From: a virus
Reading direction: 5' to 3' (one strand)
Virus record (IMG/VR): IMGVR_UViG_3300034069_000822
Length of the DNA: 64,000 nucleotides
The stretch's first letter is position 1, and each line of letters starts with the position of its first letter. Both the position numbers and the translations under genes were made by a program. The notes beneath the pieces are model-generated. The model saw only the letters and a list, made by a program, of their open reading frames with translations, did not search any database and was not told the DNA's origin. This document shows, in pieces, positions 1 to 17,338 of the stretch.

Positions 1-10
1 ATCAGTCGGC

Positions 11-397
11 TTGGATGTAATCCCGGCCGAACCAGGAGAGGAAACGTTGGGCGTTTTGACCGTCGACAGCGACCGGGGCATCGTGGAATACATGATCACG
101 GCAGAAAGTGCCCGAGCGTTCCGCACCACAATGGACCAGTTCCTAGACTACGGAAGCGCGGTGTCCGGAGCCGGCCAACCCGGGCCACAACAGGAAGCCC
201 AAACGCTTACCGTTCCGATTTCGCCAGCATCCATCACGGTTGGCGAAGCTGAAGTGGCGGGGCAAAAGGTCGGTGTCCTTCAAATACAATCGGAGGATGG
301 CCGCGAAGCCAGCCTCTTGCTCGACGAAGGACAAGCGGAGTTCATCATCCAGGCCGCGACGCAATTGCAGGCCATTCTGAACCAGACCCGGCAATAA
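11..397 (+). CDS. Hypothetical protein, 128 aa (start may lie upstream of the window)
   Basis: ORF with TTG start, stop 8 bp before the SRAP gene. Confidence 0.55.
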   Translation: MDVIPAEPGEETLGVLTVDSDRGIVEYMITAESARAFRTTMDQFLDYGSAVSGAGQPGPQQEAQTLTVPISPASITVGEAEVAGQKVGVLQIQSEDGREASLLLDEGQAEFIIQAATQLQAILNQTRQ

Positions 398-405
398 GGT
401 TTCCC

Positions 406-1137
406 ATGTGCAACCTCTACAACCTGACCACGACGCAGCAAGCAGTACTGGAATGGACACGCGCGCTTCGAGACATCTCGGGCAACTGGATGCCGAGCAT
501 GACGGTCGGCCCGGATCGCCATGGCCCTATCGTTCGCAATGGCCTCGACGGTAAACGGGAATTGGTAAAAGTGCGCTGGGGCATGCCGTCATCCCCCTAT
601 GCAATCTTGCAGGCCACAGAGGACCGCGTGACGAAGATGCGGGCCAAGGGAAAGACCGTCAGCAAGGAAGAATTCAAGGAGTTGATGAAGGTCGAGCCCG
701 ACGCGGGCACAACCAATGTGCGCACGCTCAAGAGCGAACATTGGGCGCAGTGGTACGATCTTCAGAACCGATGCGTCGTACCGATCACCAGCTTTGCTGA
801 GTGGGATAAGGAAAACAGGCGGAACCAGTGGTTTTCTGTCACGGAGGAAAGGCCGCTAGCCTTCTTCGCCGGGCTGTGGGTTCCGCAACACACCAGCATC
901 CGCAAAAAGACCGAAGGACCGGTGACGATCGATGTGTATGGCTTTCTGACCACCGAACCGAACAACGTCGTCAAGCCTATCCACTTCAAGGCCATGCCCG
1001 TCCTTCTCACCACACAGGAAGAAACCGAGACCTGGCTAACCGCACCGTGGGATGAGGCGAAGAAGCTGCAGCGCTCTCTGCCTGACAGCATGACAGCCTT
1101 GGTTGATGCACCGAAGGACGCGATCAGCGTTCAATAG
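406..1137 (+). CDS. SOS response-associated peptidase (SRAP/YedK/HMCES) abasic-site protein
   Basis: N-terminal MCNLY (Cys2), RCVVPITSFAEW, FFAGLW, PIHFKAMPVLL motifs. Confidence 0.92.
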   Translation: MCNLYNLTTTQQAVLEWTRALRDISGNWMPSMTVGPDRHGPIVRNGLDGKRELVKVRWGMPSSPYAILQATEDRVTKMRAKGKTVSKEEFKELMKVEPDAGTTNVRTLKSEHWAQWYDLQNRCVVPITSFAEWDKENRRNQWFSVTEERPLAFFAGLWVPQHTSIRKKTEGPVTIDVYGFLTTEPNNVVKPIHFKAMPVLLTTQEETETWLTAPWDEAKKLQRSLPDSMTALVDAPKDAISVQ

Positions 1138-1158
1138 GCGCTGTTCTAGGAGGTTCGA

Positions 1159-1356
1159 ATGGACCGGATTGTTCGTCTCGATACACGGCAGGAAGCAGCG
1201 CTACAGCGCGTCGCTGACCGATTTGTGGCCAGCCACAAGGGCGACGTGATGATGGCGCTGAAGCAGATGATCGTACTCAACGGCGAACTGCAGCAGCGCA
1301 TTGAGACGTTGGGAGACGGCTCGCTGTTCGACCAGGAGCATCGCAACCACCATTGA
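1159..1356 (+). CDS. Small hypothetical protein, 65 aa
   Basis: AGGAGG ribosome-binding site upstream; helical composition. Confidence 0.7.
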   Translation: MDRIVRLDTRQEAALQRVADRFVASHKGDVMMALKQMIVLNGELQQRIETLGDGSLFDQEHRNHH

Positions 1357-1363
1357 GCGATGA

Positions 1364-1391
1364 TTGACCGCGCTGCAATCGCAGCTACACT
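1364..1391 (+). promoter_or_regulatory. Candidate sigma70 promoter TTGACC-N16-TACACT; leaderless start of the ORF at 1398
   Basis: Hexamers read directly; ATG 6 nt after the -10; no Shine-Dalgarno. Confidence 0.4.
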
Positions 1392-1397
1392 ATCTCC

Positions 1398-1640
1398 ATG
1401 TGGTTCAACCCGCCAAAGCGACAGGACCCCTACCCCGACCGGCAGATAGACTGCCAGGAGGCGCTTGAACCGGGGTTTCAAATCCTCGTTGAAGAAATGA
1501 TGGCCGTTGGCTGGAGCTGTGACGAAATCCGGCAAGCGTTCGTCGGCCTGATGTCGGCACACGATCTCGCTCAGGAATCGAATGCTGCGCTTGAAGTAGA
1601 GCTTGCCTTCATGCGCGCTCAAATGAGGTTGCCGAAATAG
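1398..1640 (+). CDS. Hypothetical protein, 80 aa
   Basis: CQEALE...GWSCDEI pattern resembles small rhizobial phage proteins; candidate promoter directly upstream. Confidence 0.65.
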   Translation: MWFNPPKRQDPYPDRQIDCQEALEPGFQILVEEMMAVGWSCDEIRQAFVGLMSAHDLAQESNAALEVELAFMRAQMRLPK

Positions 1641-1649
1641 CGGGGGATC

Positions 1650-1796
1650 ATGGCCAGCAAAGACAGTCGCGAGTATTTCGCCTGGGCCTACGGCCAGCAG
1701 GCCCGCAAGGATGGCCGCCCGCGCGAGGTGCCAGATGCGTGGAAAGACCATGCTACGGGCTGGTTGAAGGGCTACGACGGAGAGCCGGCGCCGTGA
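1650..1796 (+). CDS. 48-aa micro-ORF with a ribosome-modulation-factor-like pattern (not in the ORF track)
   Basis: Translated by hand: MASKDSREYFAWAYGQQARKDGRPREVPDAWKDHATGWLKGYDGEPAP; GGGGG purine run upstream. Confidence 0.6.
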   Translation: MASKDSREYFAWAYGQQARKDGRPREVPDAWKDHATGWLKGYDGEPAP

Positions 1797-1836
1797 TGAC
1801 ATACCGGGCTGCTGGCGCCATCAACGCTTTAGCGGC

Positions 1837-2055
1837 CTACTTCTTGCTGATCGACTGAATCTGGGGCGCGAGCGAAGCCAGCGCATCGACCGTCGGCTGG
1901 TAAGTATGGGCGTATGCGGGATAGCGTTGCTGCTGCTCCCGGTAAAAACCGACCCATTTCGCATGGTCTGAAATCGGATACGTGCCAATCCAGCCGCCGG
2001 CTTCGGAGAGCGTGAAGGTGCCGGCATCGGAATCAATTGTCGTCTTGGTTGTCAT
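1837..2055 (-). CDS. Hypothetical protein, 72 aa
   Basis: ORF with plausible composition just downstream of the late terminator. Confidence 0.6.
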   Translation of the reverse strand: MTTKTTIDSDAGTFTLSEAGGWIGTYPISDHAKWVGFYREQQQRYPAYAHTYQPTVDALASLAPQIQSISKK

Positions 2056-2093
2056 GCCGGCGGTCTAGCTCTTTTTGGGTGGCCGCCAAACGC

Positions 2094-2126
2094 AAAAAAA
2101 GCCCGCCCCGGCGAACCGGAGCGGGC
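2094..2126 (-). terminator. Rho-independent terminator ending the lysis/late operon
   Basis: Minus strand GCCCGCTCCGG-TTCG-CCGGGGCGGGC followed by T7. Confidence 0.85.
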
Positions 2127-2220
2127 CTATTGCCTGAGTGCGCTCGCCAACGGACAAGCGCGCAGCCGATTAGCTGCTGGGAATGGGCTAGGCAAGCATA
2201 CGGAACATTCGATGACTCTG

Positions 2221-2580
2221 TCAGAGATACATCACGCGATGCCCCAGGGCTTCGGAGAGAGCAAGCTCCGCTTTTGCGCCTTTGCTACGTTCCCATCCCG
2301 GAAGCAGAGCGATCGTATCGGCCTGACGACATATCCACGCCGTATCGTCAGCCAATGCCTCCCTTAGTGAAAAGCCATGTTCGCGAGCGGCGGCTTCCTC
2401 ACACCCGGTTAGGTTGCCCTTGGAAATATCCTTACCATGGCGCTCGTTGTCGCGTTCGGCGGGATTGAAAACCTCGTGCCCTTGTCCCCGCAGAATGGCC
2501 GTCGCCGCATTGAAGGCCGGAAAGTTGAATTCCGGTATCCCCCGCATCGGGCCGGCTACATAGATACGCATCCTGTTCAT
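2221..2580 (-). CDS. DUF4406 family, nucleoside 2-deoxyribosyltransferase-like protein
   Basis: IYVAGPMRG..FNFPAF, VFNPAE, LLPGWERSKGAKAE motifs. Confidence 0.85.
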   Translation of the reverse strand: MNRMRIYVAGPMRGIPEFNFPAFNAATAILRGQGHEVFNPAERDNERHGKDISKGNLTGCEEAAAREHGFSLREALADDTAWICRQADTIALLPGWERSKGAKAELALSEALGHRVMYL

Positions 2581-2885
2581 GGCCGATCATCCTCGCCAAT
2601 CTGACGTGTTTCGTACGCAATGAGAAATGAGATGCAGCACGCGGCGTGCCAGAGATGGGAGCATCCGGTTTCCGGGTCGGCTCTCTCTTTGCGCCACCAT
2701 GCCCACAAATGCCGCATGAGCGCTCCGAACACTCGGCCCCACTTCATGCCTTTTTCCCAGTTTCGATCCTCATATTTTTGAGCACCGAAGGTCAGGATTG
2801 TTGCGGTTGCTTCGAGCAATTCCGGCGGCAGCAGCTCCATCCGGATTTTGCCGGAATCGTCCTTGCGACCTTCTTGTGGGTTCAT
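2577..2885 (-). CDS. dATP/dGTP diphosphohydrolase domain protein (DUF5664-like), 102 aa
   Basis: GRKDDSGKIRMELLP, FGAQKY..RNW.KG, DPETGCSHLWHAACC; true start MNPQ at 2885 with ATGA overlap. Confidence 0.85.
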   Translation of the reverse strand: MNPQEGRKDDSGKIRMELLPPELLEATATILTFGAQKYEDRNWEKGMKWGRVFGALMRHLWAWWRKERADPETGCSHLWHAACCISFLIAYETRQIGEDDRP

Positions 2886-3907
2886 CGACGCAACCACGCC
2901 AGATAGTCCGCGCCCTGCTCCACATCGGCGAAGCATTGGACCTTCCCTGTCTGCGGAAACACGACTGACAACACCGCCGCGCCGCGATTGGACTGGGCAT
3001 AGCCATTCACGAGGGCATGGCGATCGCCCATCTTGTAGCCCGATATCTGAGCCAGCCACGCGTTCGACTTCTTTTCAGGAAACTCGATATCGAATAGCCC
3101 GAACGAATGGATATGGCCGGTAACGAAAAGTGCCGCGTCCTGGCCGAACTTGGCATCTCTCAGCGTGCCATGGGTCGGATTGTAGATCGATGAGCCCTTA
3201 CGGCCGTGGGCGGCATCGACACGCGTTTCCGACCCGTTCTTGTGGCAAAGTGTGAACTGTGCCCGCCAATCGATCACGGGGATCTGCGAAGCGCCGAGAA
3301 GCTTGTAGAACTCGGTGCCACCGTTCCATTCGTCGTGATTACCGCCGAGCCAGAGAAGCCATTTGATCCCGGCTTCCATCATGAACCAAGTCGCTAGACG
3401 CCGCTCGGTCTTGGATGAAATGTCGGCCTCGGCCCATAGCCGCGCCAACCTCCCGGTCCATGGCCAATTGTCTGAGGTGTCACCTATGTTCCCGCCATAG
3501 ACGCCGGGATGTCTGGCGATGGCGATATGGCTTTCTAGCGTCTTCCAGTCACAATGGACGCCGAGATGAGGATCGCCGAACCAGAGAATTCCGTAGGGCT
3601 TCTCATCCTTGATCTTGATCGGGAACCAAGATCGAGCCTCGATTGCCTTCTGCTTGCGGTCGTGGGCTTTGCGAAATCGATCGAGGATGTCGTCAATCGG
3701 TTCTTCTTCATCGCCGTGGACGAAAGCGGGGAACTCCACCGCTTCATCCTTTTCGACGTGGATGCTACGGCGTTCCGCAGCCGCAAACTGACTTTTTAAT
3801 GTTGATGCTGGTAGCCCTAAAGCCTTTGCAGCGGCCGCCTTTGATCCGTGTTCCTGTACTGCACAGAGCACGGCTCGCAGTTGTGCCTCATCGGTTGATA
3901 CGACCAT
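2882..3907 (-). CDS. Calcineurin-like metallophosphoesterase with N-terminal Fis-like HTH
   Basis: GDPHLG, GDTSDN, GGNHD, AAHG, GHIH motifs; GSKAAAAKALGLPASTL HTH. Confidence 0.85.
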   Translation of the reverse strand: MVVSTDEAQLRAVLCAVQEHGSKAAAAKALGLPASTLKSQFAAAERRSIHVEKDEAVEFPAFVHGDEEEPIDDILDRFRKAHDRKQKAIEARSWFPIKIKDEKPYGILWFGDPHLGVHCDWKTLESHIAIARHPGVYGGNIGDTSDNWPWTGRLARLWAEADISSKTERRLATWFMMEAGIKWLLWLGGNHDEWNGGTEFYKLLGASQIPVIDWRAQFTLCHKNGSETRVDAAHGRKGSSIYNPTHGTLRDAKFGQDAALFVTGHIHSFGLFDIEFPEKKSNAWLAQISGYKMGDRHALVNGYAQSNRGAAVLSVVFPQTGKVQCFADVEQGADYLAWLRR

Positions 3908-3922
3908 ATGTGAGCCTCTGAA

Positions 3923-4354
3923 TTATTGGAAAGCTGGGGTTTCGGGCCGTTTTTCAACGTTCCTCGAAACAGGAGGCGGTCCGTCAAAGGACACGCCTTC
4001 GTCATTGCGGCCGCGCTTTATGTGCGCTGAAACCCCATCGCCGTTACCGGCGTCGAGGGCATCTTGAAGTTGGTTGGCCGCAGCGGTCGAATAGGGAAGG
4101 ACGTAGAAGGTCGGAACATCGCCAGCATCGAGCAGGACATAGATGGCCTTGTCGACCACAATCTTTGCCCCGACGACGGCATAATCACCTTGTGGTGGGG
4201 TTGTGAAGCGAGGCGAACCCGTTGGAACCCACAACGCAGCAGCGGCGACAAGACAAGAGATCGGTAGCGTGAGTAGGACCAGACGGCGATTAATGAACCA
4301 TCCCATTGCGCATAGGATGAATGCTAGGCAAAGCCATGTTGTTGCGATGATCAT
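3923..4354 (-). CDS. Membrane protein (2 N-terminal TM helices plus soluble domain), third gene of the MotA/B-like cassette
   Basis: Two hydrophobic segments; ATGA overlap with the upstream gene. Confidence 0.75.
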   Translation of the reverse strand: MIIATTWLCLAFILCAMGWFINRRLVLLTLPISCLVAAAALWVPTGSPRFTTPPQGDYAVVGAKIVVDKAIYVLLDAGDVPTFYVLPYSTAAANQLQDALDAGNGDGVSAHIKRGRNDEGVSFDGPPPVSRNVEKRPETPAFQ

Positions 4355-4896
4355 TTGCCAACCTCGCGCAGAGGTTTGAACACCCTGTTCTCGCTGCCCT
4401 CGATCAGGCGCCCCTCGCCGTCGAGCCGGAACCGAATGACGGTCCTCTCCTGCTTGGGCTGGAGATCAATATTGGTTTTCACCAAAAGCCGGCCGTTGAG
4501 AGAGGCCTCGACATAGACCGGAACCGGACCTGTCGGCAGGGAATACCCATGGACGTTGACGACATACTCGCCGGCCGGTGTCGCGCGGGCGAAGGCGTTT
4601 TCCATGTTGATGGGAGACACGTCACCGGTGGTTCCCATATCGTCACGCAGAAGGCTCCAAAGCTTCCCCTGCTTGTTGCTATAGCCGACGGCGACAGGTT
4701 CGCCCGGACCAGTTACCCAAAGATCGACATCAATTGGTCCAACGGGCCACGAGATCATGACCGCGATGTTGCCGGGTGGCTTTGTTTCTTCGTTCGATTT
4801 GGCGGCTGGATTGATCTGCGCCAGCACGAGCACGACCAGCGCAGTGAGCCCAAGAAGCATATTCATGAGCAGGTCGCGCGTGAGGATCGGTATCAT
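4351..4896 (-). CDS. MotB/ExbD-like single-TM protein with a YfaP/DUF2135-like periplasmic domain, 181 aa
   Basis: TRDLLMNMLLGLTALVVLVLA (Asp at the start of the TM); ISWP..IDVDLWV, GEYVVNVHGY; true start MIPIL at 4896. Confidence 0.65.
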   Translation of the reverse strand: MIPILTRDLLMNMLLGLTALVVLVLAQINPAAKSNEETKPPGNIAVMISWPVGPIDVDLWVTGPGEPVAVGYSNKQGKLWSLLRDDMGTTGDVSPINMENAFARATPAGEYVVNVHGYSLPTGPVPVYVEASLNGRLLVKTNIDLQPKQERTVIRFRLDGEGRLIEGSENRVFKPLREVGK

Positions 4897-5291
4897 TTCG
4901 AAACGATCCAGGCGTTGACGTTCAGCCAAAGGGCACAGACCGCGCCGACGAGGGTCGAACAAAACGCGACACCCATGCCGGCCAAAAGAGACGCAGCGAC
5001 CTTCTGCACACCCTCGGCAGTTCCAAGAGAGTTCATATCGATGTGATGCAGGGCAAGCACGAAACCCACGACGTTGCCGATGAGGCCCAGCGTCACGAGC
5101 CACACTTCATAGCGATCGAGATGATTGGTTCGTCCTGCAAAGACGCCGACCATCACAGCAAGGAAGATGGCGGTGATGAGATAGCTGAGACGGGAAATAT
5201 CATGGCTGTAAACGAAACCGAGATATCCCATCCACCACGTCCATGCGAGAAAACACAGGGCCGCGAAGTTTAGAACAGCGAGCCTGATCAT
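4893..5291 (-). CDS. MotA/TolQ/ExbB proton-channel family protein (minimal, 4 TM)
   Basis: LGLIGNVVGFVLAL ... LLAGMGVAFCSTLVGAVCALWL matches the LGLLGTV..G...AL.TT..G family signature. Confidence 0.75.
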   Translation of the reverse strand: MIRLAVLNFAALCFLAWTWWMGYLGFVYSHDISRLSYLITAIFLAVMVGVFAGRTNHLDRYEVWLVTLGLIGNVVGFVLALHHIDMNSLGTAEGVQKVAASLLAGMGVAFCSTLVGAVCALWLNVNAWIVSK

Positions 5292-5638
5292 GGCGTTTCC
5301 GTCCCCGGAACGACTTCCTTGGGCGGGATGACATCAAGCCAATCCTGACCTGTCGCCACGACGCAGGCCTGCCCTTTCTGGTCGAGGATCGCGACGGTCC
5401 AGGTAGCTCCGGCTGGCGACGCGAATACAATCAGTGCAGCACTTCCCTGCCCCGTGATGCCGGAACCGGCGGGAACTTCGTGATATTTGTCAGCGAGACC
5501 CTTGGCGAGTTTCTGGAACTCGAGACAGGCCATCGACTGAGCATGTGCCTGCGAAAGGCTTAACGCGATGAGCGCAGCAACGATGCCGGCCAGCCACAAC
5601 AATGTGAACCAGATGCGAAAACGAAATGCGGTACCCAT
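5288..5638 (-). CDS. Secreted/periplasmic hypothetical protein, 116 aa, two Cys
   Basis: Signal peptide ending AHA-Q; C...KY.E.P...VFAS..G.TWTV...ACVVATG. Confidence 0.75.
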   Translation of the reverse strand: MGTAFRFRIWFTLLWLAGIVAALIALSLSQAHAQSMACLEFQKLAKGLADKYHEVPAGSGITGQGSAALIVFASPAGATWTVAILDQKGQACVVATGQDWLDVIPPKEVVPGTETP

Positions 5639-5703
5639 GGCCAGAGTCCTTTCCGGCGTGCGAGGGAACGAAATTTCGATGCGAATGAGAGAGGCGAAGC
5701 GCC

Positions 5704-5988
5704 CTATGGTGGATTGCGGCCGCGTCGGCCGCCTTGGTCGTAGAGCCGGTCCAGGCGCTCGTGGAGACCATCCATCCGGCCGGCGACGCCTTCAATGGCG
5801 CGCATGATCGCGGTGGTCTGTTCCTGCATGCCGGCCTTCGTCGAATACGTCTCGGCAACGTGCGTTTTGTATTCCGAGAGTTCCTTGTCGACCTTGGCGA
5901 TCGCCTGAGAAAATCGCCAATAGGCCGCGCCAACAGCGCCAACGACCGTCGCGATGAACAGGATGGCGCGCATGAGTTCTTCGCTCAT
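5704..5988 (-). CDS. Small membrane protein (TM plus coiled coil) in the lysis module
   Basis: One TM helix then heptads; ATGA overlap with the o-spanin. Confidence 0.7.
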   Translation of the reverse strand: MSEELMRAILFIATVVGAVGAAYWRFSQAIAKVDKELSEYKTHVAETYSTKAGMQEQTTAIMRAIEGVAGRMDGLHERLDRLYDQGGRRGRNPP

Positions 5989-6254
5989 TTGGCGGCTCCC
6001 GTACCGGCATTCCAGCGCCGAACCCCGTCGACCTGCGCTGCACAGACCCTCAGCGATGCCTCATTGGCCGTTGCTGTGCCCACGATGTCCTTCACCGTTG
6101 ACCATTTGCGGCGATCAGCCTTCGGGCATGGGACCGTGAACGCCTCTGGTACCCGCAACTGCTCGACCTTCGGCGCAACCACGGTCTCAGTGCTGATACA
6201 ACTTGCCAAGGTCACTGGGCACAGGACGATTGAGAAAATCGCGCACCACTTCAT
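5985..6254 (-). CDS. o-spanin (Rz1-like lipoprotein), 89 aa
   Basis: Lipobox LASC; Pro/Cys pattern VPEAFTVPCP; overlaps the i-spanin 3' end. Confidence 0.8.
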   Translation of the reverse strand: MKWCAIFSIVLCPVTLASCISTETVVAPKVEQLRVPEAFTVPCPKADRRKWSTVKDIVGTATANEASLRVCAAQVDGVRRWNAGTGAAK

Positions 6255-6555
6255 TTGACTTTTCCAGTTCGGAGAGTTTTTGGGATTGATCTTCGACCGA
6301 CGCACCGATGTTGCGCATTTCTTGGACCAGCGAGGAGACAAGGCGGCTATCTAGCCGCGCCTGTTCCTGCAGAGCGTCGATAGTGCTGTTTGCGGCCTTG
6401 TTGGCATCGACGGCCACGGACAGCTGTTTCTGCGCGTCCCTGGCCTCGGCGGAGGCGCTTATGGCCTGCCCGCGATACCAGAGCGCCGTCGCGATAAGTC
6501 CGGCGAGCAAGACAGCGATTACCAGCGCTGCATAGAGCTTGGCTTGGGTGAACAT
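6187..6555 (-). CDS. i-spanin (Rz-like), 122 aa
   Basis: N-terminal TM, long coiled coil, C-terminal FLNRPVPSDL; follows the endolysin. Confidence 0.8.
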   Translation of the reverse strand: MFTQAKLYAALVIAVLLAGLIATALWYRGQAISASAEARDAQKQLSVAVDANKAANSTIDALQEQARLDSRLVSSLVQEMRNIGASVEDQSQKLSELEKSNEVVRDFLNRPVPSDLGKLYQH

Positions 6556-7067
6556 CACAGCCCCGCCAGGCACAGTTCGAGTTCGCCAAGGCGACTTGCG
6601 TCGCCAAACTGCCGACGGTTCTTCAACCCCTGTATCTCTTTGCCATTCGCTTTATCGAACCAGGTCATCGCGTAGCAGGAGCCGGTGTAATCACCGACAC
6701 GGGCGCGCTTCGCCGCGGTCGAATTGCAAACTGCCCCGACGCCCACGTTGTAGGAAAGGTCGAGCGTAGCGGCCTGCCAACTCAGTGGTTTGCCGTCGAA
6801 CCCTTTGATGCAGCGGGTGAGCGGCTGGTGAAAATCGACCTCGAGGCGGCGATACAGCATGGCGCTGCACTGCTGGTCGGACATCACCATGTCGGGCTTC
6901 ACGCCCTTGGTTTCGCCCGTGCAGATCGTCCACACCTTACCCAGCCTATCCCAATAGGCGCGGTTTACCGTCCCCTCCCAAGGCTGCGTCAAATAGGTCG
7001 CAGTCATCGCGACAAGGCCAAGACCGGAGGCGAGCGCCGCTTTTGCGCGCTTACTCATTGTCGTCAT
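6555..7067 (-). CDS. SAR endolysin, GH24 (T4/P21-like) lysozyme
   Basis: Ala/Gly-rich SAR helix; E-x8-D-x5-T triad (WEGTVNRAYWDRLGKVWTIC); GLKNRR. Confidence 0.9.
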   Translation of the reverse strand: MTTMSKRAKAALASGLGLVAMTATYLTQPWEGTVNRAYWDRLGKVWTICTGETKGVKPDMVMSDQQCSAMLYRRLEVDFHQPLTRCIKGFDGKPLSWQAATLDLSYNVGVGAVCNSTAAKRARVGDYTGSCYAMTWFDKANGKEIQGLKNRRQFGDASRLGELELCLAGL

Positions 7068-7281
7068 CCTTCAGGTTGGATTGGTCGATGATGCGGACCA
7101 CCGGAACGGCAACAGCTAGAACGCCGTTGAGTGCAGCGAGCCACATCGGGGCGACTGGCAATGATCCGGTGATGATGGAGACGGTCACGGCAGCGCCGTT
7201 GAGTATAGCGGCCAAAAGCGCCAGACGGACGGTCCATGCATAGCGCAGGACCGCTCGCCAGTTCGTAACGAGACGAGGCAC
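7051..7281 (-). CDS. Putative holin/pinholin, 2 TM
   Basis: NWRAVLRYAWTVRL start, two TM helices, position upstream of the SAR endolysin. Confidence 0.7.
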   Translation of the reverse strand: MPRLVTNWRAVLRYAWTVRLALLAAILNGAAVTVSIITGSLPVAPMWLAALNGVLAVAVPVVRIIDQSNLKDDDNE

Positions 7282-7319
7282 GGTCTTTCCTTTCCGGCGT
7301 TATTCGATTAGTTTCCCGG

Positions 7320-7506
7320 CATCTCACCGAAATGAGGTGGGATGGGGCGTGAGAACCCCTCCAAGCGACGCTCTCCGGCACAGGCTGGGGAGCGTTTCAT
7401 ACCCTCCCGATTACCGTTCGGGTCGGGGAGGCATACGCGTATGTCCAGGGCGAAAGTCTAAAGGCGTATGCGGTCGTCGCTTGGCGGCTTCTCAACTCCC
7501 CGATCC
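7320..7506 (+). ncRNA. Candidate structured RNA (multibranch junction)
   Basis: Long-range pairs 7361-7370/7475-7484 (10 bp), 7350-55/7489-94 and 7340-47/7498-7506 enclose three hairpins; GAAA loop. Confidence 0.5.
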
Positions 7507-7524
7507 AGATTTGGGGAGATGGGT

Positions 7525-7785
7525 ATGTTCGAAAACCTCTATGAACTTTCCTGCCAGTGGCTGGACCATTGGCAGCTAACGCATCCGAAGCACTGGTGGA
7601 CGTGGTGGCGGACCGACCCTTTCGAGTGGTCGCCCTATATGCCGTTCGGACGAAAAATCCGCGATGAAGCTGGCAACCTGATCGAAGGCAACTGCATGAG
7701 GCGGTTTCGTGATGGCTCTTGGACCTACCGGCCGTTTACCGAAAAAGAATCAGCTGACGACGACATGTGGCACGGGGTCCGCTGA
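7525..7785 (+). CDS. Trp-rich hypothetical protein, 86 aa (moron)
   Basis: GGAG 6 nt upstream of ATG 7525; opposite to the late operon. Confidence 0.6.
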   Translation: MFENLYELSCQWLDHWQLTHPKHWWTWWRTDPFEWSPYMPFGRKIRDEAGNLIEGNCMRRFRDGSWTYRPFTEKESADDDMWHGVR

Positions 7786-7947
7786 CGCCGGATCGTCTCC
7801 CCCTGCTATGCAGATCGCGCCGAAGCGGGTGGTTATGAGTTCCAGATATTAAGCCGGGTCAACGAAAGTACATCTCCGCTGGAATTGCCCAATGGCGATG
7901 TTCCCATCTACTTTGTCGCTAGGGCAAAAAAACAATGGGACTGGGGA

Positions 7948-8469
7948 ATGAAAAAAACCATTGCATGCGTCGTCGCCATAACGCTCACATTCTTGTTGTC
8001 GCCTGTGGCGGCAGATGAGTTTCGCGGTGCTCTGGTTCACAAGAATACCGATGCCGAGCAGATCGTTCCGAATAGCTATTCGCACGCACAGTGGGTGCAG
8101 GTTGAATTTCCTGAGGTCGAATACGACACGAGCGGCTTATGGGACGCGGCAAACCATCAATTCGTAATTCCTGACGGCGTACATTTTGTTCGTCTCTCAG
8201 GACAAATAGTATGGGACCACGACGCTAAGGGCTCGCGGCAGACACTCATTACCAAAAACAATGCCCTTTTCGACGGTTATGCCGCCCAGAACGGGCGAGC
8301 AACTTTTGGTACCACTCCCGATCAAAACGTAGCGACAGCCGTCATTCCGGTAAAAGCAGGAGACACGTTTCAGTTGCAGGCGTGGCATATACGCCAAAAA
8401 CCAACAGGTGCGCCAACTAAGATTTACGGAAATCACGGAACGTGGTTTTCCATAGAAGTAATTGATTGA
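7948..8469 (+). CDS. Secreted C1q/TNF-like jelly-roll protein (moron), 173 aa
   Basis: Signal peptide MKKTIAC...PVAA; WDAANHQFVIPDG..VRLSGQIVW, IPVKAGDTFQLQAWH. Confidence 0.7.
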   Translation: MKKTIACVVAITLTFLLSPVAADEFRGALVHKNTDAEQIVPNSYSHAQWVQVEFPEVEYDTSGLWDAANHQFVIPDGVHFVRLSGQIVWDHDAKGSRQTLITKNNALFDGYAAQNGRATFGTTPDQNVATAVIPVKAGDTFQLQAWHIRQKPTGAPTKIYGNHGTWFSIEVID

Positions 8470-8478
8470 TGACAAGAG

Positions 8479-8506
8479 GCGACCTACGGGCGTCCCAGTA
8501 GGTCGC
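8479..8506. terminator. Hairpin between convergent genes, probable terminator
   Basis: GCGACCTAC/GTAGGTCGC 9-bp stem; no U tract. Confidence 0.5.
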
Positions 8507-8582
8507 ACCATCCCATCATATCGACGGTATGCATCTGAGCATGGCGGGGGTTGCCAATCGTTCCCGTTGTTCTCGGCCGCTA

Positions 8583-9380
8583 CTACGCAAGAACAAGCTG
8601 CAGAGCAGCCTTGATCGAAGCGCACTGAATGTCGTCCCCCGCCATGCTCAGATGCATACCGTCGATATGATTGGCATCGGCTAAGTTCCCCGAATTATCC
8701 ACCAGTTGAGCCTTCGGACGCGCGAACTCCACGCGGGCCGTGCTGCTTGCCCAAGCTAAGCGGATGCGCGCGTTCACAGCATCGACCTGGGCATTGAACC
8801 CGGCGTAATTGGAGCTGACATTGGCAACCAACACCGGCTCATTGACCGGCAAGATTTCGCGGATCACCCATTTGCCAGTGGCCTGAGCCGCAACGCACTG
8901 ATGCATGACGGCGATGTTGTTCAGCTTCGCTTCAAGCGGGTAGGCGTTGTAATAAGCGAAATTCGCCAGTTCATTCACGCCTGATGCCAGCACGACAGCC
9001 CCGGCCCTGTGGATCAGGCCGCCCCTGGAAAGCCGGTTCAGGCATCTGCGAAGGCTCTCACCACCAACGCCGAAGCCCTCGACAAATGGCCCAATCTTCC
9101 ACGTCACCATGTCCTGCACGATGGAATCGCCCAAGACCATGATCGTGCCATTGAGGCAATGCGCCATCTTCCGATCATAATAGCCCAGATCCACCGCCGT
9201 GGGGACGGTGTCATTTGACGTATATCCGAGCGGATAAGGGAGGAGCGCCGTAGGCCACACACCGCCGAGACAATCAACCCCGGTTGGCATGGTGTAGGTC
9301 GACAGGCCGCCGCCGGGAATATTATCGAAAGCAGTAGCGATCGAGCGGAAGGTATCTCCAAGGGAGGTCATGCATTCCAT
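8583..9380 (-). CDS. SGNH/GDSL hydrolase, tail-associated
   Basis: Blocks GDSI, G, GVNE, DGMH. Confidence 0.85.
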   Translation of the reverse strand: MECMTSLGDTFRSIATAFDNIPGGGLSTYTMPTGVDCLGGVWPTALLPYPLGYTSNDTVPTAVDLGYYDRKMAHCLNGTIMVLGDSIVQDMVTWKIGPFVEGFGVGGESLRRCLNRLSRGGLIHRAGAVVLASGVNELANFAYYNAYPLEAKLNNIAVMHQCVAAQATGKWVIREILPVNEPVLVANVSSNYAGFNAQVDAVNARIRLAWASSTARVEFARPKAQLVDNSGNLADANHIDGMHLSMAGDDIQCASIKAALQLVLA

Positions 9381-10969
9381 CCATCAATTGGTACTGAGAA
9401 GCGAAGTTCCACCGGGACGGCGGAGCCAATAACCGTCCCAGGCACAGGGGTCACGCTATCGCGGCCGGCCGAGGCATAGCTGAGATTCACGACGTTCGAA
9501 CCACCAAGCGCCAGAACATAGATGCTCTGCGTGCCGGCAACCTGGGATACTCCCACACCAACAACAGGCCTAAACGTATTCCAGTATGTATCGCAGACGA
9601 CACCGCCACTGAGCCCGTTAAACCCCATCGTCATATCGAACGTCGTCGCAGTAACGGTACCGGTCATAAATGCCACTTCCACTTCCAGATTGGCGCCGAC
9701 ACGTCTTGATCGACATTGAATGCCGGTAGCGGTGCCGATCCCATTAAACGTTGGCGTGTAAGCCACCCACGGGGTCATGAATGAAACCGTGGGTAACGCG
9801 ACGGCGACCTGATACGAGATCACCTTCCAATTGCCCGAGCCGAGTGATTGAACGACTGCACTATCACCGGCGGCGGTCGTGATATTGGCGCGCCCGGGCA
9901 AGATCATGGAAGTGGCATTGTAGGTTAGCGTCAACGCGGCCGAAAACGTCAGGAACCGCAGGGCACCGGCAGGGAGCGTACCAAAGGACGCGATTGTTGT
10001 CGTGCCGGTAATCGTAACCTCGGATGCAGCTACGATTGAAAGATTCGTCGTCGAGGCCGAGGCTATTGTTCCAGTGGACAACGCCAGCGTGGTTGCAGTT
10101 AATGCCTTGGGCGTACTGGCGCCGATAACCATGTTGTCTATGGTGCCAACGGTCGCCGGGTACACGGACACGAGGCCCGAGCCAGTCGGTGACACAATCA
10201 CATTGTAGTTGGCCGGCGAGAGTGTAATAGCACTGCTTGCGGTCAGTGTAGTAAAAGCACCGCTTCCAGCGACAGTCGCCCCGACACTCATGTTATCCAT
10301 GGCACCGGCTGTTGCCGGATTGATGGTGACCACACCGGAGCCTGTCGGCGACAGCGCAACGTTGGCGTTGGCTGGAGAAAGGGTTGTTGCGCCGCTGGCT
10401 GTAAGGGCCCCCGTTACCGTGAACGCTTTTGAGATCGTCAGCAGGTTGTTTGAGTGGGTTACGGTGACGTTGCCGTTGGCGAAGTTGATGGCTGCCCCAC
10501 TGGCCAAGAATAGGCCCGACCATTGCAGGGTCGTTGACCCGAGCGATCCACCATTGTTAGAGACTGGCGTGATCCCTCCCGACGCGGAAAGGCTTGTAAA
10601 GGTTCCAGCCCTCGCCGTAGTCCCTCCGATGACCATATTGTCGATCGTGCCGGGACTCACCGGATTGATGTTGGTGATGCTGTTGCCGGCAACCAGCGGT
10701 CCAACGCTGACATTGTTCACCTGGATGAACAATCCGGTGGATGCCAACCACATATCGCCGTTATTGGGATTGGCTGGCGCGACACCTTGGTAGAGGCGAA
10801 AGCCGGAACTCTGTGCCGTTGACGCAGCGATAGACAGCTTCCCGACCATCGTGCCGCCCGCCTGATTGAGGGGCGTGTAGTCGAGATTGTCCTGCTTGTT
10901 GCCGAAGGCGTTGTTCCATTGGGCAGTCGTCGGAACAAAGCCGTAAGACCAGTTTGGATTCCAGCTCAT
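9368..10969 (-). CDS. Tail fibre/spike-like protein with internal repeats, 533 aa
   Basis: Thr/Gly/Ser-rich; repeats TLSPAN.NV..SPTGSG.V...PAT.G..DNM; position in the fibre region. Confidence 0.75.
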   Translation of the reverse strand: MSWNPNWSYGFVPTTAQWNNAFGNKQDNLDYTPLNQAGGTMVGKLSIAASTAQSSGFRLYQGVAPANPNNGDMWLASTGLFIQVNNVSVGPLVAGNSITNINPVSPGTIDNMVIGGTTARAGTFTSLSASGGITPVSNNGGSLGSTTLQWSGLFLASGAAINFANGNVTVTHSNNLLTISKAFTVTGALTASGATTLSPANANVALSPTGSGVVTINPATAGAMDNMSVGATVAGSGAFTTLTASSAITLSPANYNVIVSPTGSGLVSVYPATVGTIDNMVIGASTPKALTATTLALSTGTIASASTTNLSIVAASEVTITGTTTIASFGTLPAGALRFLTFSAALTLTYNATSMILPGRANITTAAGDSAVVQSLGSGNWKVISYQVAVALPTVSFMTPWVAYTPTFNGIGTATGIQCRSRRVGANLEVEVAFMTGTVTATTFDMTMGFNGLSGGVVCDTYWNTFRPVVGVGVSQVAGTQSIYVLALGGSNVVNLSYASAGRDSVTPVPGTVIGSAVPVELRFSVPIDGWNA

Positions 10970-10980
10970 TCAGATCAACC

Positions 10981-12105
10981 TCAGACAGTCGTGAGACGTT
11001 GGAATGCAACACGATTGACGAGCGTCATGGGTTGTGTTGCCCCTGAAACTTGGAAGCCCCACAGGTCGAAAACATCTCCGACCAAAACATCCTTGATTTC
11101 AGCGGCACCGCCGAAGAGCTGGCTAATAACCGTCGTGCTCAAGCGGAGAGAGCTCGAAGATAGTTCGTTGCCATTGTAATGGAGCCCAAAGGTAAGAGCC
11201 GTAGCTTGGGCTGAAACCATAGTGCCCCCAAGGGTGGCGAAGATGTTGTAGCGCCCAGCCCGCTGGCAAACCACGGTGTTCCCAGTCTGAACAAAATCGC
11301 CTTGGCCGTCGTCGGAAAACGACGTGATTGGCAACGTCGTGATGGTATTGTCCGCCATGCTGAAGGGCGAACCAAAGCTATACGCGGATGCGAAACGAGT
11401 GACGGATGTTAGTGAGATGTTTCCCGCGTCGACCCCTTGGAGCAGGAAGTTCGTGCCATCATAGACCGCGCCGTAAATCTTGCCGGTTTTGAGCCGGATG
11501 AGCGGCAAAAGGTTTTTGTTACCGAGCCCATTGGCGTTGAGGGTAAGTGCGCCGGTGCTGTCAGCCGTCGCCTTGAAGTAGATCACCGTACCGGCCGTGT
11601 AGGCAGGAAGCGCTGGCGCCAATGCCACCGTCAGGGCATTGGCTGTCCCGCCCGCGACGGCATAATTCCACTTTCCGGACTGCACATCAGTGGATATCGC
11701 GATCTGAACCCAGTTCACCCCCCCGGAATCCGGGTTCGTGATGTTGTCGTCGACTAGATTGAGCCACACCACACCTGCCGTCGAAGCACTGGCAAGCAGG
11801 GCTGATTTTGGATACCCGCCAACGGTTGTCGAGAATGTCCCGTCGTAGGTCGCAAGACCACCAGCACCCTGCCACTGACTCCAAAGCGTGATCTGCTTCA
11901 GAATGCCGTTCATATCCTGACCGAAGGGGGGCACGCCGCCCGCGCCAACGGGAAGGAAATTCATCGGCGGGAACCCCGTCGTAAGCGAGGCGGCACCGTC
12001 CTGAACACCGATCTGGGATGCCTCCGGTACTGGCCGCACGTAGCCGCCGCCAGCGCCGTTCGCAAAAGGGATGTTGAACCTTGCGGGAAGGTTGGAAAGT
12101 TTCAT
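10981..12105 (-). CDS. Baseplate-attached tail fibre protein with a C-terminal C1q-like domain
   Basis: Conserved N-terminus IPFA...SQIG..DGAASLTTGFPP..GGVPPFGQDMNGIL; C-terminus CQRAGRYNIFA...VGDVFDLWG. Confidence 0.8.
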   Translation of the reverse strand: MKLSNLPARFNIPFANGAGGGYVRPVPEASQIGVQDGAASLTTGFPPMNFLPVGAGGVPPFGQDMNGILKQITLWSQWQGAGGLATYDGTFSTTVGGYPKSALLASASTAGVVWLNLVDDNITNPDSGGVNWVQIAISTDVQSGKWNYAVAGGTANALTVALAPALPAYTAGTVIYFKATADSTGALTLNANGLGNKNLLPLIRLKTGKIYGAVYDGTNFLLQGVDAGNISLTSVTRFASAYSFGSPFSMADNTITTLPITSFSDDGQGDFVQTGNTVVCQRAGRYNIFATLGGTMVSAQATALTFGLHYNGNELSSSSLRLSTTVISQLFGGAAEIKDVLVGDVFDLWGFQVSGATQPMTLVNRVAFQRLTTV

Positions 12106-12121
12106 GACTGCCTCGAGGAGT

Positions 12122-12871
12122 TCAGAGAATGACGATGGCGGCCGCGACGCCGGTAGGCTTCGGCAAAACGCCTGAATTCTGGACGATGGCGAGTTCGACA
12201 GGGCTAAGCGGGAACTCGAACGTGTATGTCATCGTCATGGTTGTAATCGGCGAACCCGAGTAGAATGCCGCTTGATTGAAACCTTGGGCATTGACGGATT
12301 CCGCAAACCCGAACCACGTACCTTGCTGCTTGCCTTCGGTGACGTATGTGTTGCCACGATGAGGAAACAGATCCATCAGAATGCGGTTGATCGCCGGGAT
12401 TGATCCGCTTGTGATGTTGGCTGCGGCCTTGGCAATGATCAGCGTTCGATAGGACGCATCGGATAGCGCGAAGTTATCGGTGAGCGTCTGACCTGAGTAG
12501 AGCGCTGACTGTCCGAAGGTGAATGAGCCTGGCAGCGCCTCGTCGTATCCGAACCAGTCGCCATTGACGACCTTCAGGACGCGATTGACACCAACAATTC
12601 GCCCCCAGCAATCTAAGCCGTATCCTTGGGCGGTATCGAGGTTCATCACCAGATCGAAGAAGGCTTCGATGTTTTGGGTCTGATCGACGTATTCGAAGAT
12701 GTTTTCGATCAGCGTCGTAAGCACTGGTGAATTTGCGTACTGGCTGATGATTGTCTGCCAGACATCGAAGCTCGAAATGCCCCCGATCTGGCTAACGCCA
12801 ATCTTGAAGAGCCCAACGCCATTCGACCCGGGAAGCGGCCCAGGCGGGTAATCCGGTCCTGTATCTGCCAT
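12122..12871 (-). CDS. Baseplate wedge protein, DUF2612 family
   Basis: IISQYANSP, NLDTAQGYGLD.WGRIVG, LSD..YR.LI..KA motifs. Confidence 0.85.
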   Translation of the reverse strand: MADTGPDYPPGPLPGSNGVGLFKIGVSQIGGISSFDVWQTIISQYANSPVLTTLIENIFEYVDQTQNIEAFFDLVMNLDTAQGYGLDCWGRIVGVNRVLKVVNGDWFGYDEALPGSFTFGQSALYSGQTLTDNFALSDASYRTLIIAKAAANITSGSIPAINRILMDLFPHRGNTYVTEGKQQGTWFGFAESVNAQGFNQAAFYSGSPITTMTMTYTFEFPLSPVELAIVQNSGVLPKPTGVAAAIVIL

Positions 12872-12875
12872 GAGA

Positions 12876-14312
12876 TCAGCTCAGCGTGACCGCAACATCG
12901 GCAGCCGTCACCGTTGGGATTTGGTTGATGTTGATACCGATCTCAAACAGGTTCGCTGCTACGGTCTGCATGGTTTCGGTCGCAACGGTCAGGCTGTTGC
13001 TCAGCGTGTAAGTGCCTGTGCCTCCTGTGCCCGTGCCCAAGGCGATGATGGATGTGCCAGCCACCACGGCACCCGAAGCATCAAGCACGTTTTGCCCAAC
13101 GGCCAAGGTTCCCGATGAGATAGCCGAGACCGTCAACGTGTTGCCATTGATCGATCCCGTGAACGTGGCTGCCGCCGCATTTGTGGATCCGATCCTGATC
13201 GAGACAATCTGTGCCCACGGTCCAAGAAGTGAGATCGGAGCGTAGAACCGGCTCGCAAAGACTGGAGCACCGATCTTTGCTCGCAGACCGCCGTCGAGCC
13301 CGGCGAAAGCACCAACAATGGCATTTCGAATTTGTGTCGCGGCATCGGCCGGTACCAGCGTCGAGTTGTTGATGTTGACGTTGAAGATGATCCGAAGCGG
13401 GTTCGGAATTTGATATGAGACGGAGTATGCCGGATAGGGCGGCACATATCCGGGGCTCTGATCGAGGACGACGACCGAAGTATTGCCGTTATAAGCGCAT
13501 CCCGGCGACTTCTTCGACCAGATGGCACGAACAATGTCATTGGGCGCTCCGCCCGCTGCCGCGACATAGAGCGAGTTCGGTAGCAACGACACTCCGCCAA
13601 TCACCTGCGGGGCGTTGCTGGTGTTCTCGGTAACGTAGGCGTCAATAACGCCAGGAACCGTCAGAACAGCACCCAGAACCGATGGAAGAGTTCCGATGGA
13701 ATTGTGAGCGACAGATGCGGCGCGCCTTGCTTCGAACGCGGCTCGTGATTCCACATTGTTGCCAAGCACGCCGGCACTTGGATTGTTGATCGAATCCCAA
13801 CCAGGAATAGATTGATAGACCTGATTGAGCGTATCGGCGGGGCATGGGATCGGACCCGGAAGAACGCAATCGAACGGCAACGTGATCTGTCCCGAAACCG
13901 GGATGACCCCGTCTTGGGTGCAGACATAGCGATTGCCGTCCGCCGCAACTGCCAAGGCCCCCTGCGGGATCAGCACGCCCTGTAGGCCGGTGCAGAGACA
14001 TTGAACCGTTGTTGGCTGCGCCGGATTGCGCGAGATGAAGTAGATGCGCGCCAGCGCGTCCTGATAGCGGCCAAAGGCGAAGGCCGGATCGAACATCTGG
14101 GTCAGAAAGAGAAAATCGGCATCGGTGTTAAGAACAACAGCCGCTTCGCTCGATGCAAGCTGCCCTTGAGGCGTCTCCAGGGACGGATTGAGGCCGCCGC
14201 CAAAGGCAGAGTTGATATCCGCCTGCACGCCGTCCAACACTTGCTGCGAGGACGGAATGACAAAACCCCGCGGCCCGAACGTCGGGCGCGGCACATTGGA
14301 CGTTGTTGCCAT
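12876..14312 (-). CDS. Baseplate J-like protein
   Basis: [37 protein letters not shown]. Confidence 0.85.
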
Positions 14313-14662
14313 CAGAACGAAGCTGCCGTGACGTTGCCGTTGCTGTCTTTGACCTGAACCTGGCCCCGGACGGTTCGGTCAGTCCATTCCGAGATGTAGG
14401 CGACTGCCGAGACGACGCCCGGCACGGTCATTGCCGACCGGACGAACCACGCCTTCATCAAAGAGATCGGCGGAGCCTGCCCCAAAATCTGATCGAAATA
14501 CGGAATGCCCGGTCGGGTATCGAAGTAGAGTTCACCCTGAAACAGGCGGATTGCGCTCGCCGCATCTTGGGCCAAAGCGTAGGGTTCAGCGGCCAGTGCG
14601 ATATTGCCCGACGCATCAATCTTCAAATCCCATGCGCTGGGCTCAAGCATCAGCGTCTTCAT
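14312..14662 (-). CDS. Baseplate gp25/W-like wedge subunit, 116 aa
   Basis: WDL..D..GNIA....PYA.AQD, LFQGE.Y.D...GIPY; true start MKTLM. Confidence 0.8.
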
Positions 14663-14663
14663 C

Positions 14664-15323
14664 TCAGGTTCCCGGAACAGGCTGTGCCGTATTGCCACCA
14701 CCCGGAACGACACCGGAGTGGAGATGATTAAGCAAGGAAACGTAGCCGCCACCGAAGCCCGCGACAACGTCGCCGGTCACGTGTAGCGTGCCGGTGATCT
14801 TGATGATGCCGCCAGAGTTCATCTCGATCACGTTCCCGTTCTTGTCGGCCACAGTCACGCCATCGGCGCGGAAGTGAACGAATTGATCCGGATTGTTCGG
14901 ATTGAGCATCCCGCGCTGGTAGACGCTGTCGGCTAGATTGTGGCGCCGCTTGCTGCCCGGATTCGACTGAGCACCATCGTTCGATTTCAGTGCGGAGATG
15001 TCACGATCAGCGACCGATACCAGACCGACATCGCCGACGACCGGATCATTGATGATGGCGTTGCCGCCACCCTGGTTTCTGGAGACGGCGACGCCATAGA
15101 TGATGCCGTGATCGGTCTTCTTGCCAACACCATCGGTCTGATTGACCATGATTTGCACGTCGACTGTCGGGGGCTTGCCGACGCCACCACCATGTTTGGC
15201 AATGACCTTGACGGGAATGTTTGTCCGGACTTGTGCCAGTGCCTGTCGAATTTGAAACTCGACAGTGTTGCTGTCGCCGGCAGCGTCGGAAACGCCCTGT
15301 TGACCGAAAAAGCTCTCACTCAT
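14664..15323 (-). CDS. Baseplate central spike (Gp138-like N-terminus), 219 aa
   Basis: OB-fold-like N-terminus; C-terminal HxH metal tip SLLNHLHSGV. Confidence 0.85.
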   Translation of the reverse strand: MSESFFGQQGVSDAAGDSNTVEFQIRQALAQVRTNIPVKVIAKHGGGVGKPPTVDVQIMVNQTDGVGKKTDHGIIYGVAVSRNQGGGNAIINDPVVGDVGLVSVADRDISALKSNDGAQSNPGSKRRHNLADSVYQRGMLNPNNPDQFVHFRADGVTVADKNGNVIEMNSGGIIKITGTLHVTGDVVAGFGGGYVSLLNHLHSGVVPGGGNTAQPVPGT

Positions 15324-16186: not shown

Positions 16187-16217
16187 ATGGAGTTCCGATC
16201 AATGAGCGTGGCTATTT

Positions 16218-16261
16218 TGTAAGGTAGTGCTTGACATATTTCCGTAAGCTGGTACCTTACA
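16218..16261 (+). promoter_or_regulatory. higBA promoter and palindromic operator
   Basis: TTGACA 16231-36 and TACCTT 16253-58; 9-bp inverted repeat TGTAAGGTA (16218-26) / TACCTTACA (16253-61); inner GTAAG-N7-CTTAC. Confidence 0.7.
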
Positions 16262-16264
16262 GAA

Positions 16265-16543
16265 ATGATCGTGTCGTTCCGAAACAAAGCCCTGCAACGG
16301 TTCTTCGAGACCGGAAACCCACGCGGTCTGAGTGTTCAGGATGACAAGCGAGTGTCCCGCATCCTGCGCGCGCTTGAAGCTGCGTCTGCACCGGAAGACA
16401 TGGACCTTCCTGGCTATCGTTTTCACGGCCTCTCAGGTCAGGACAAGGGCCGCTATTCGGTCCGCGTTACCGGCAATTGGCGCATCACATTCGGCTGGGA
16501 CGGCGAACACGTCACCAACGTTGAATTAGAGGATTACCACTGA
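16265..16543 (+). CDS. higB: HigB-family toxin (plasmid maintenance system killer)
   Basis: MIVSFRNKAL.RFF..G, PGYRFH.L.G...YSVRVTGNWRITF; toxin precedes antitoxin. Confidence 0.93.
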   Translation: MIVSFRNKALQRFFETGNPRGLSVQDDKRVSRILRALEAASAPEDMDLPGYRFHGLSGQDKGRYSVRVTGNWRITFGWDGEHVTNVELEDYH

Positions 16544-16851: not shown

Positions 16852-16914
16852 CCCGACTACTTCAGAATCTCCAATCCAACGGATATGGTTGTCCCCATCT
16901 CAACGGGGGCAACC

Positions 16915-17334: not shown

Positions 17335-17338
17335 TCAA

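Follow-up and report, generated by a model that had tools for sequence, protein, structure and literature searches.

Three short membrane genes in a phage genome raise the question of whether a virus can carry an ion-driven motor of its own, related to those of the flagellar stator and the Ton and Tol systems, and, if so, whether such a motor belongs to phages or to their lysis machinery. The genes lie on the minus strand of a 64,000-nucleotide stretch of viral DNA (IMG/VR record IMGVR_UViG_3300034069_000822), which in its full length is called the window here. Gene A (5291-4893) encodes 132 amino acids (aa), a predicted minimal four-helix channel subunit of the MotA/ExbB/TolQ type. Gene B (4896-4351; 181 aa) encodes one N-terminal helix with an aspartate at position 8, a short linker and a beta-sandwich resembling DUF2135, TerD and PPC domains. 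Gene C (4354-3923; 143 aa) encodes a hairpin of two helices, followed by a small beta-alpha domain and by a tail that is rich in Pro and disordered. Read from the sequence, both the A/B junction (4896-4893) and the B/C junction (4354-4351) are ATGA stop/start overlaps. An earlier note, made from the letters of the window, had proposed that these translationally coupled genes form a miniature, stand-alone and phage-encoded ion motor inside a lysis operon, where it might tune the timing of lysis. In the reading that we favour, to which we give slightly better than even chances, A, B and C form an inner-membrane motor that resembles Ton and Tol and is driven by protons; its axle partner and its accessory would be of new kinds, and phages would carry a miniaturised version.

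Membership of A in the MotA/ExbB/TolQ/ZorA superfamily is supported by profile comparisons of its sequence. Residues 67-123 match the Pfam family MotA_ExbB (PF01618) with 23.8 bits against a cut-off of 22.9 (E 4e-5), and scans with the PADLOC and NCBIfam models give weak matches to ZorA (E 4.5e-6). When a profile built from 24 relatives of A was compared with the PDB, the top eight matches (E 0.008-0.3) were to ZorA, MotA and another protein with a MotA/TolQ/ExbB domain; all eight are A subunits of 5:2 motors, and the matches always cover the last two helices. Chains of ZorA and MotA are matched at E 0.008-0.03. The nearest Atlas clusters of A are likewise MotA_ExbB (PF01618), many of its relatives carry a precomputed match to this family, and some are labelled ‘MotA/TolQ/ExbB proton channel family protein’ at NCBI. 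In the profile alignments, Asn73 of A falls on the pore Thr in transmembrane helix 3 (TM3) of MotA and ZorA, and in the MotA alignment Thr113, which is nearly invariant in the family, falls on the Thr of TM4. Position 73 is Asn in the window and in the mini clade from rhizobia, and Thr in phage 16-3 and in the long forms.

The long forms belong to a size series within the A family (alignment A4), which runs from about 132-150 aa in this phage and in rhizobiophages, through 170-202 aa, to 218-280 aa. The size forms are told apart by a stretch inserted between TM2 and TM3, where relatives of 176-280 aa carry inserts, and by a helix at the C-terminus. Because the TM2-TM3 insert of the longer forms is rich in Lys and Arg, it should be cytoplasmic. 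In the window, the corresponding cytoplasmic loop has about nine residues and the protein stops five residues past TM4, so that A is the bare four-helix core of the family.

Motors of this kind are marked by a partner protein, encoded beside the gene of the MotA/ExbB family, whose lone helix bears an acidic residue at its cytoplasmic end. The structural model of B, with a predicted local distance difference test (pLDDT) score of 93, consists of a helix at residues 2-28, a short coil and a beta-sandwich at residues 44-158, and it places Asp8 at the cytoplasmic start of this only helix. An acidic residue, usually preceded by Arg, is found at the helix start in 233 of the 243 relatives of B that could be evaluated (about 96%; Asp in 229, Glu in four). 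Of the ten exceptions, several trace back to truncated gene calls or miscalled starts, or lie barely under the threshold. The Asp column is at least 90% conserved in alignment A1, and invariant in alignments A2 and A3.

The sandwich of B has its closest structural relatives among DUF2135 proteins, which it matches in the AlphaFold DB at E values from 2.4e-13 to 2e-6; the best match is to a 234-aa protein, over the same overall length. In the PDB the matches are TerD-like crystal structures (E 2e-4), and a D-x-D-L-[WY]...P motif is common to B and the PPC domain of a subtilisin-like protease. Sequence models reach this domain at best in part: four of 47 relatives of B match DUF2135 in Pfam (PF09906; best E 1.3e-4), and B of the window has no match in Pfam, PHROGs, PADLOC or NCBIfam. 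In particular, neither the Pfam search with the B protein of the window nor the families matched by the 47 relatives include ExbD, MotB or OmpA. The invariant residues of B are mostly acidic (D56, D58, D85 and E99), with D86, D92 and N97 nearly invariant, and analogy with TerD and PPC domains suggests that the acidic residues of the sandwich form a metal site. The family is large, with 685 matches in the clustered protein collection and 1127 representative clusters at E <= 1e-3 in an exhaustive search.

C is supported as a conserved third partner of A and B. Its model is of moderate quality (pLDDT 68) and begins with two helices and a short Arg-rich turn between them. A beta-alpha domain with a conserved core and an invariant Pro81 comes next, and then the disordered tail. 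The alignment of C (A5) takes in distant members from five loci (L003, L004, L005, L007 and L008), and BLASTP gives E 1e-24 for the homologue in Rhizobium phage RHph_TM3_3_14B and E 4e-7 for the one at L005. Judged by the positive-inside rule, this domain would probably lie in the periplasm, though with some uncertainty about the topology, since the gene call of one distant homologue includes a long extension at its N-terminus. Fold searches of the entire PDB and of the AlphaFold DB returned generic helical hairpins and unnamed proteins of similar layout, with no named relative among them, and Pfam, PHROGs, PADLOC and NCBIfam hold no match to C. Compared with TonB and TolA, C has two helices and neither a conserved His nor an SHLS motif, and its likeness to them is limited to the short Pro-rich tail.

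What the earlier note had observed on the proteins is confirmed: the three genes are coupled and lie at 5291-3923 on the minus strand, the channel motifs that it quoted from the four-helix A are present, the Asp of the single-helix B is conserved in homologues and is followed by a DUF2135-like rather than an OmpA domain, and C has two transmembrane helices. The absence of TonB or TolA, of the ZorA tail and of ZorC, ZorD and ZorE, which it had also noticed, agrees with our results for C and for the neighbouring genes. A PADLOC scan of A and five other proteins for Zor families gave a weak ZorA core match for A alone; four of the other five had no PADLOC match of any kind, and the fifth, a 94-aa membrane protein encoded upstream of A, had one weak match to JetC (E 0.003).

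The next question is whether the three genes belong together. A lies directly upstream of B, or is parted from it only by inserted homing endonucleases or small open reading frames (ORFs), in every locus that we examined, namely the window, 10 other phage or metagenome loci and 13 Pseudomonadota genomes with B; C-like genes follow B in nearly all of them. These 13 genomes, found among 401 evenly sampled ones, carry the trio; all 13 have an A-like ORF before B, and at least 10 have a C-like ORF after it. In cultured phages, tblastn searches of 50,697 records found B in 10; all ten are rhizobiophages, and they represent at least four genome types. Rhizobium phages RHph_TM3_3_14B and RHph_X2_25 have the trio in order, with homing endonucleases and small ORFs inserted; RHph_N3_13 and RHph_I1_18 have the same gene order; and in phage 16-3 of Sinorhizobium meliloti the trio is p038, p040 and p042. 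The order is also found at five distant metagenomic loci, one of them on a 357-kb contig that resembles a jumbo phage. Scans of viral contigs with a single protein, and of genomes with a distant member as query, gave no matches. Since the B family comprises more than a thousand representative clusters and the synteny survey, which the earlier note had proposed, finds the A-B-C order again in distant phages and bacteria, chance association of the three genes is excluded.

A maximum-likelihood tree of B, which is unrooted and for which the context labels are our own rough assignments, has two groups with support of 100/99. Most chromosomal copies fall into one of them together with RHph_N3_13 and RHph_I1_18, and phage and prophage copies, including that of the window, fall into the other; phage and cellular forms are therefore interleaved. 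The idea that the device is specific to phages does not survive these results, given the sampled bacterial genomes that carry the trio.

Several observations concern individual copies. RHph_TM3_3_14B has a Seg-like homing endonuclease gene between A and B (L001, 5336-6094), and RHph_X2_25 has an HNH endonuclease gene between B and C (L002, 6240-6782); insertions of this kind seem to concentrate in the trio. The 357-kb contig (L010) consists of densely packed small ORFs on the same strand and looks like a jumbo phage; at 8622-11202, a gene for an outer-membrane beta-barrel of the 8-strand type (OMP_b-brl/Opacity) lies immediately upstream of a trio with a long A. B is split into two frames in the copy of Rhizobium ruizarguesonis Vaf-46 (L015/L017) and has an in-frame TGA in a Rhizobiales isolate (L016), and some prophage copies of the trio appear to be decaying.

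Among the closest known systems are ExbB-ExbD-TonB and TolQ-TolR-TolA. They too are three inner-membrane partners encoded together, with a PF01618 channel subunit, a single-helix partner whose membrane Asp lies near the cytoplasmic face (and is essential in Ton and Tol), and a Pro-rich region in the third subunit; the predicted output of the trio is likewise in the periplasm, not the cytoplasm. However, the A subunit of the trio has 132 aa, four helices, no cytoplasmic domain and Asn in place of the TM3 Thr, and B has the DUF2135-like sandwich instead of the ExbD/TolR fold. C differs from TonB and TolA in its two helices and in lacking the SHLS/His motif and their C-terminal domain, and with 143 aa, about 95 of them past the second helix, it seems too short to span the periplasm. 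Moreover, the trio is phage-borne.

With MotAB and PomAB, the trio has in common the four helices of A, the place at which a cytoplasmic domain is inserted in longer forms (after TM2 and before TM3, like that of MotA), the pore motifs of the last two helices, apart from the Asn at the TM3 position in the window, and the Asp on B, whereas it lacks the torque-generating cytoplasmic domain, the plug helix and the OmpA-like wall-binding domain, and no flagellar genes are nearby. ZorAB is similar in that ZorA models are the best profile matches to the last two helices of A, and in that both systems are tied to phage biology. It differs by the long ZorA tail, by ZorC, ZorD and ZorE, and by a peptidoglycan-binding domain of the ZorB type, none of which the trio has; furthermore, Zorya genes are carried by the host and the trio genes by the phage. 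For B, the DUF2135 domain (PF09906, the C-terminal domain of YfaP), TerD and PPC domains share the fold of residues 44-158 and the D-x-D-L-W/Y...P and acidic motifs, but none has been described on a MotB-like helix beside a MotA/ExbB gene, and B of the window scores below the Pfam model.

A precedent for such an exchange of partner domains comes from TolQ-like genes paired with non-ExbD partners that bear an Asp-containing ‘transpore helix’ (PMC12204202, section 8). As in the trio, a gene of the TolQ family there has no ExbD or TolR neighbour, and an unrelated periplasmic domain sits on an N-terminal Asp helix (PMC12204202). That domain is of the von Willebrand factor A (vWA) type, however, and not DUF2135-like as in the trio, and the part of PMC12204202 that treats these systems reports frequent pairs of heterologous partners and describes neither a C-type subunit nor phage copies.

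We consider a proton-driven motor of the MotAB/ExbBD/TolQR type most likely because A is homologous to the channel subunits of these motors and the Asp of B is conserved. Homology, conservation and gene linkage are observations, as are the folds of B and C in their models; the stoichiometry, proton flow, rotation, role of C and target are what we infer. In the proposed mechanism, A would form a ring, and the N-terminal helices of B would sit in its pore, where Asp8 would take up and release protons passing the polar pore residues Asn73 and Thr113 of A. The periplasmic sandwich of B, probably metal-binding, would anchor the axle or touch a component of the envelope, and C is the likely candidate for an adaptor seated on the ring, in the way that TonB rides on ExbB and TolA on TolQ. 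Because mini-A lacks a cytoplasmic domain, output would have to be in the membrane or the periplasm, as in Ton and Tol. The phage copies would be miniaturised versions of a cellular system.

Several features count against this proposal. The Pfam score of A is marginal, just over the gathering cut-off, its TM3 pore Thr is replaced by Asn in the window, and its cytoplasmic domain is missing although it is present in all characterised members of the family. B lacks the ExbD/TolR fold, has no OmpA-like domain to bind the cell wall and is without a plug helix. C lacks a TonB/TolA motif, and its topology is taken from the positive-inside rule alone. Finally, one apparent fusion of A and B (P0255), a single ORF at L003 6001-7029 with a CAA-ATG junction where a TAA stop is expected, would be ill suited to a 5:2 ratio if it is real; it is a singleton, on a contig labelled with 2.26x coverage. 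Such a fusion is topologically possible, but we give P0255 little weight. As strong evidence in the form of a natural A-B fusion it was rejected, on account of its single occurrence, the low-coverage contig and the CAA at the expected stop.

The surroundings of the trio bear on whether it serves lysis. In the window, every gene of the region is on the minus strand. In transcript order, the trio is preceded by a DUF7940 holin (76 aa; 7281-7051), which is the first gene, an endolysin with a Phage_lysozyme domain and an N-terminus resembling that of signal-arrest-release (SAR) endolysins (170 aa; 7067-6555), Rz (6573-6187), Rz1/LysC (6341-5985), the 94-aa membrane protein (5988-5704) and a 116-aa signal-peptide protein (phrog_25396; 5638-5288), and C is followed by a helix-turn-helix-metallophosphoesterase gene (3907-2882). 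The trio is therefore downstream of the spanins and on their strand, as the earlier note had it, but two genes, those of 94 and 116 aa, intervene. The N-terminus of the endolysin is a hydrophobic stretch rich in Gly, Ala, Ser and Thr, typical of SAR endolysins, and the holin gene overlaps the endolysin gene, in an arrangement that resembles pinholin/SAR systems.

On the minus strand between 7600 and 1900, the sole strong site resembling an intrinsic terminator, a 13-bp stem followed by a T run, is at 2128-2099, with none between the lysis genes and the trio. This site probably ends the transcript of the trio; the preceding lysis genes and the nucleotide-metabolism genes that follow are therefore probably on the same transcript. 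Runs that contain DNA of the window (contig-only runs) have flat and identical coverage over 20 kb, which is uninformative on transcription. Positions 1-20000 of the window recur as letter-identical DNA, with the same contig cuts, in runs of 13 unrelated studies of marine, hydrothermal-vent and soil samples and of several organisms, among them ‘RNA’ libraries whose coverage is flat. This recurrence suggests a widespread contaminant organism of laboratories or reagents.

The 116-aa gene is joined to A by an ATGA overlap as well, as read from the sequence, and a look-alike of its product (36% identical) is encoded two genes upstream of A on a distant phage-like contig (L008, 1540-1905). However, its family, phrog_25396, is also present in 28 phage records from Rhodobacter, Ruegeria and Roseobacter, none of which was among the results of our tblastn searches of the phage collection with B. 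We therefore rejected this secreted protein as a core fourth subunit, as it is widespread in phages where B was undetected; it is probably an accessory neighbour of the trio.

Elsewhere, lysis genes recur beside the trio in 16-3-like phages and at L003, but not generally: in RHph_N3_13 the trio comes after DNA polymerase, exonuclease and endonuclease I genes, in RHph_I1_18 it lies between a metallophosphoesterase gene and a tRNA block, and in rhizobiophages the trio is more often accompanied by genes for a trypsin-like peptidase and a metallophosphoesterase. In four large Pseudomonadota genomes (L036-L039), where A has 255-276 aa when callable, the trio divergently adjoins a HAMP-HisKA_3 kinase gene; a Response_reg/GerE regulator beside the kinase was confirmed in two of the four, and LuxR-TPR regulators are also near the trio in two. 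In two other bacterial genomes the trio lies among metabolic genes. The claim of a place inside a lysis operon thus holds for this phage and for 16-3-like phages but not for RHph_N3_13, RHph_I1_18 or the four chromosomes, and a role in lysis timing is not indicated by the comparative context. A lysis-specific module was rejected in view of the DNA-metabolism, two-component and metabolic neighbours. From these varied contexts in phages and chromosomes, it follows that the trio is a module in its own right, of which cells and phages alike make use.

These contexts also bear on what else the trio could be. A and B might make a gated proton leak, a channel without mechanical output; the resulting drop in membrane potential late in infection would tune when the pinholin fires and when the SAR endolysin encoded just upstream is released. 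The shared strand with holin, SAR-like endolysin and spanins, without a terminator in between, would fit such a role, as would the lack of a plug helix in B and of a cytoplasmic domain in A to push against. We nevertheless regard it as unlikely, since the trio of RHph_N3_13 and RHph_I1_18 is away from lysis genes and among genes for replication and nucleotide metabolism, chromosomal copies adjoin two-component regulators and metabolic genes, and a leak would need neither a conserved C nor the elaborate domain of B. It is somewhat less likely that the trio guards the envelope, acting against other phages by superinfection exclusion or against envelope defences of the host, by sensing or disturbing events at the inner membrane in a loosely Zorya-like manner. 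Here the missing ZorA tail, the lack of ZorC, ZorD, ZorE or any other PADLOC family among the scanned neighbours, the inability of mini-A to signal to the cytoplasm and the presence of the trio in strictly lytic phages have to be set against the ZorA models as best matches of A and against three neighbourhoods: the immX superinfection-immunity genes a few kb from the trio of phage 16-3, the beta-barrel gene directly upstream on the jumbo-phage-like contig, and a restriction-enzyme gene at L005.

The trio may also not be a motor at all, if A is a diverged scaffold that has kept its helix motifs and the Asp of B serves assembly or metal binding. The marginal Pfam score and the replaced TM3 Thr of A could be understood in this way, but the retention of the hallmark acidic residue in about 96% of a B family with more than 1000 representative clusters makes it improbable. 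Tol and Ton are common phage targets, and A and B are reduced to little beyond the parts with which subunits of known motors contact each other, so the phage proteins could instead mix with TolQR or ExbBD of the host and disable or redirect them, with no motor of their own. Of these alternatives it is the least probable, as A, B and C travel as a set and chromosomes hold the same trio with a full-size A, which argues for a self-contained complex.

We thus return to the autonomous Ton/Tol-like motor as the reading that we favour. A more specific form of it can be offered tentatively, as possible and somewhat on the doubtful side. The trio would then be the smallest self-contained member of the 5:2 superfamily, with a ring built from bare four-helix subunits, an axle that carries both the Asp and a metal-binding sandwich of a new kind, and an adaptor, also new, with two helices. 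Diverse phages, ranging in size between 60-kb rhizobiophages and the 357-kb jumbo-phage-like contig, would use it for work on the host envelope driven by the proton-motive force during infection, for example to exclude rivals, to hold or loosen the envelope or to time release, and a full-size cellular version would be under two-component control.

Both B and C are annotated as ‘hypothetical’ everywhere, and literature searches on DUF2135, on phages with MotA/ExbB/TolQ, on rhizobiophages with TolQ and on phages with the transpore helix gave no description of the trio. We class it as a new branch of the 5:2 motor superfamily, in which the axle domain and the third subunit are new and the ring subunit is extremely reduced. 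To our knowledge, every characterised 5:2 motor, that is, the flagellar stator, Ton, Tol, the gliding and type 9 secretion motors and Zorya, has a substantial cytoplasmic part and a partner of a known class. If our proposal is true, a version that consists of the membrane core alone would define the minimal working unit of the motor family and would be a highly tractable object for studies of structure and mechanism. Next to the ExbD/OmpA-like and vWA kinds of axle domain, the sandwich of B would be a third, and the trio would be, as far as we have found, the first such motor shown as a viral tool and not as a machine or defence of the host. Phage 16-3, which carries the trio, is a cultured model phage for functional testing, and in bacteria the HisKA_3/GerE regulators next to chromosomal copies hint at an unstudied function in the envelope.

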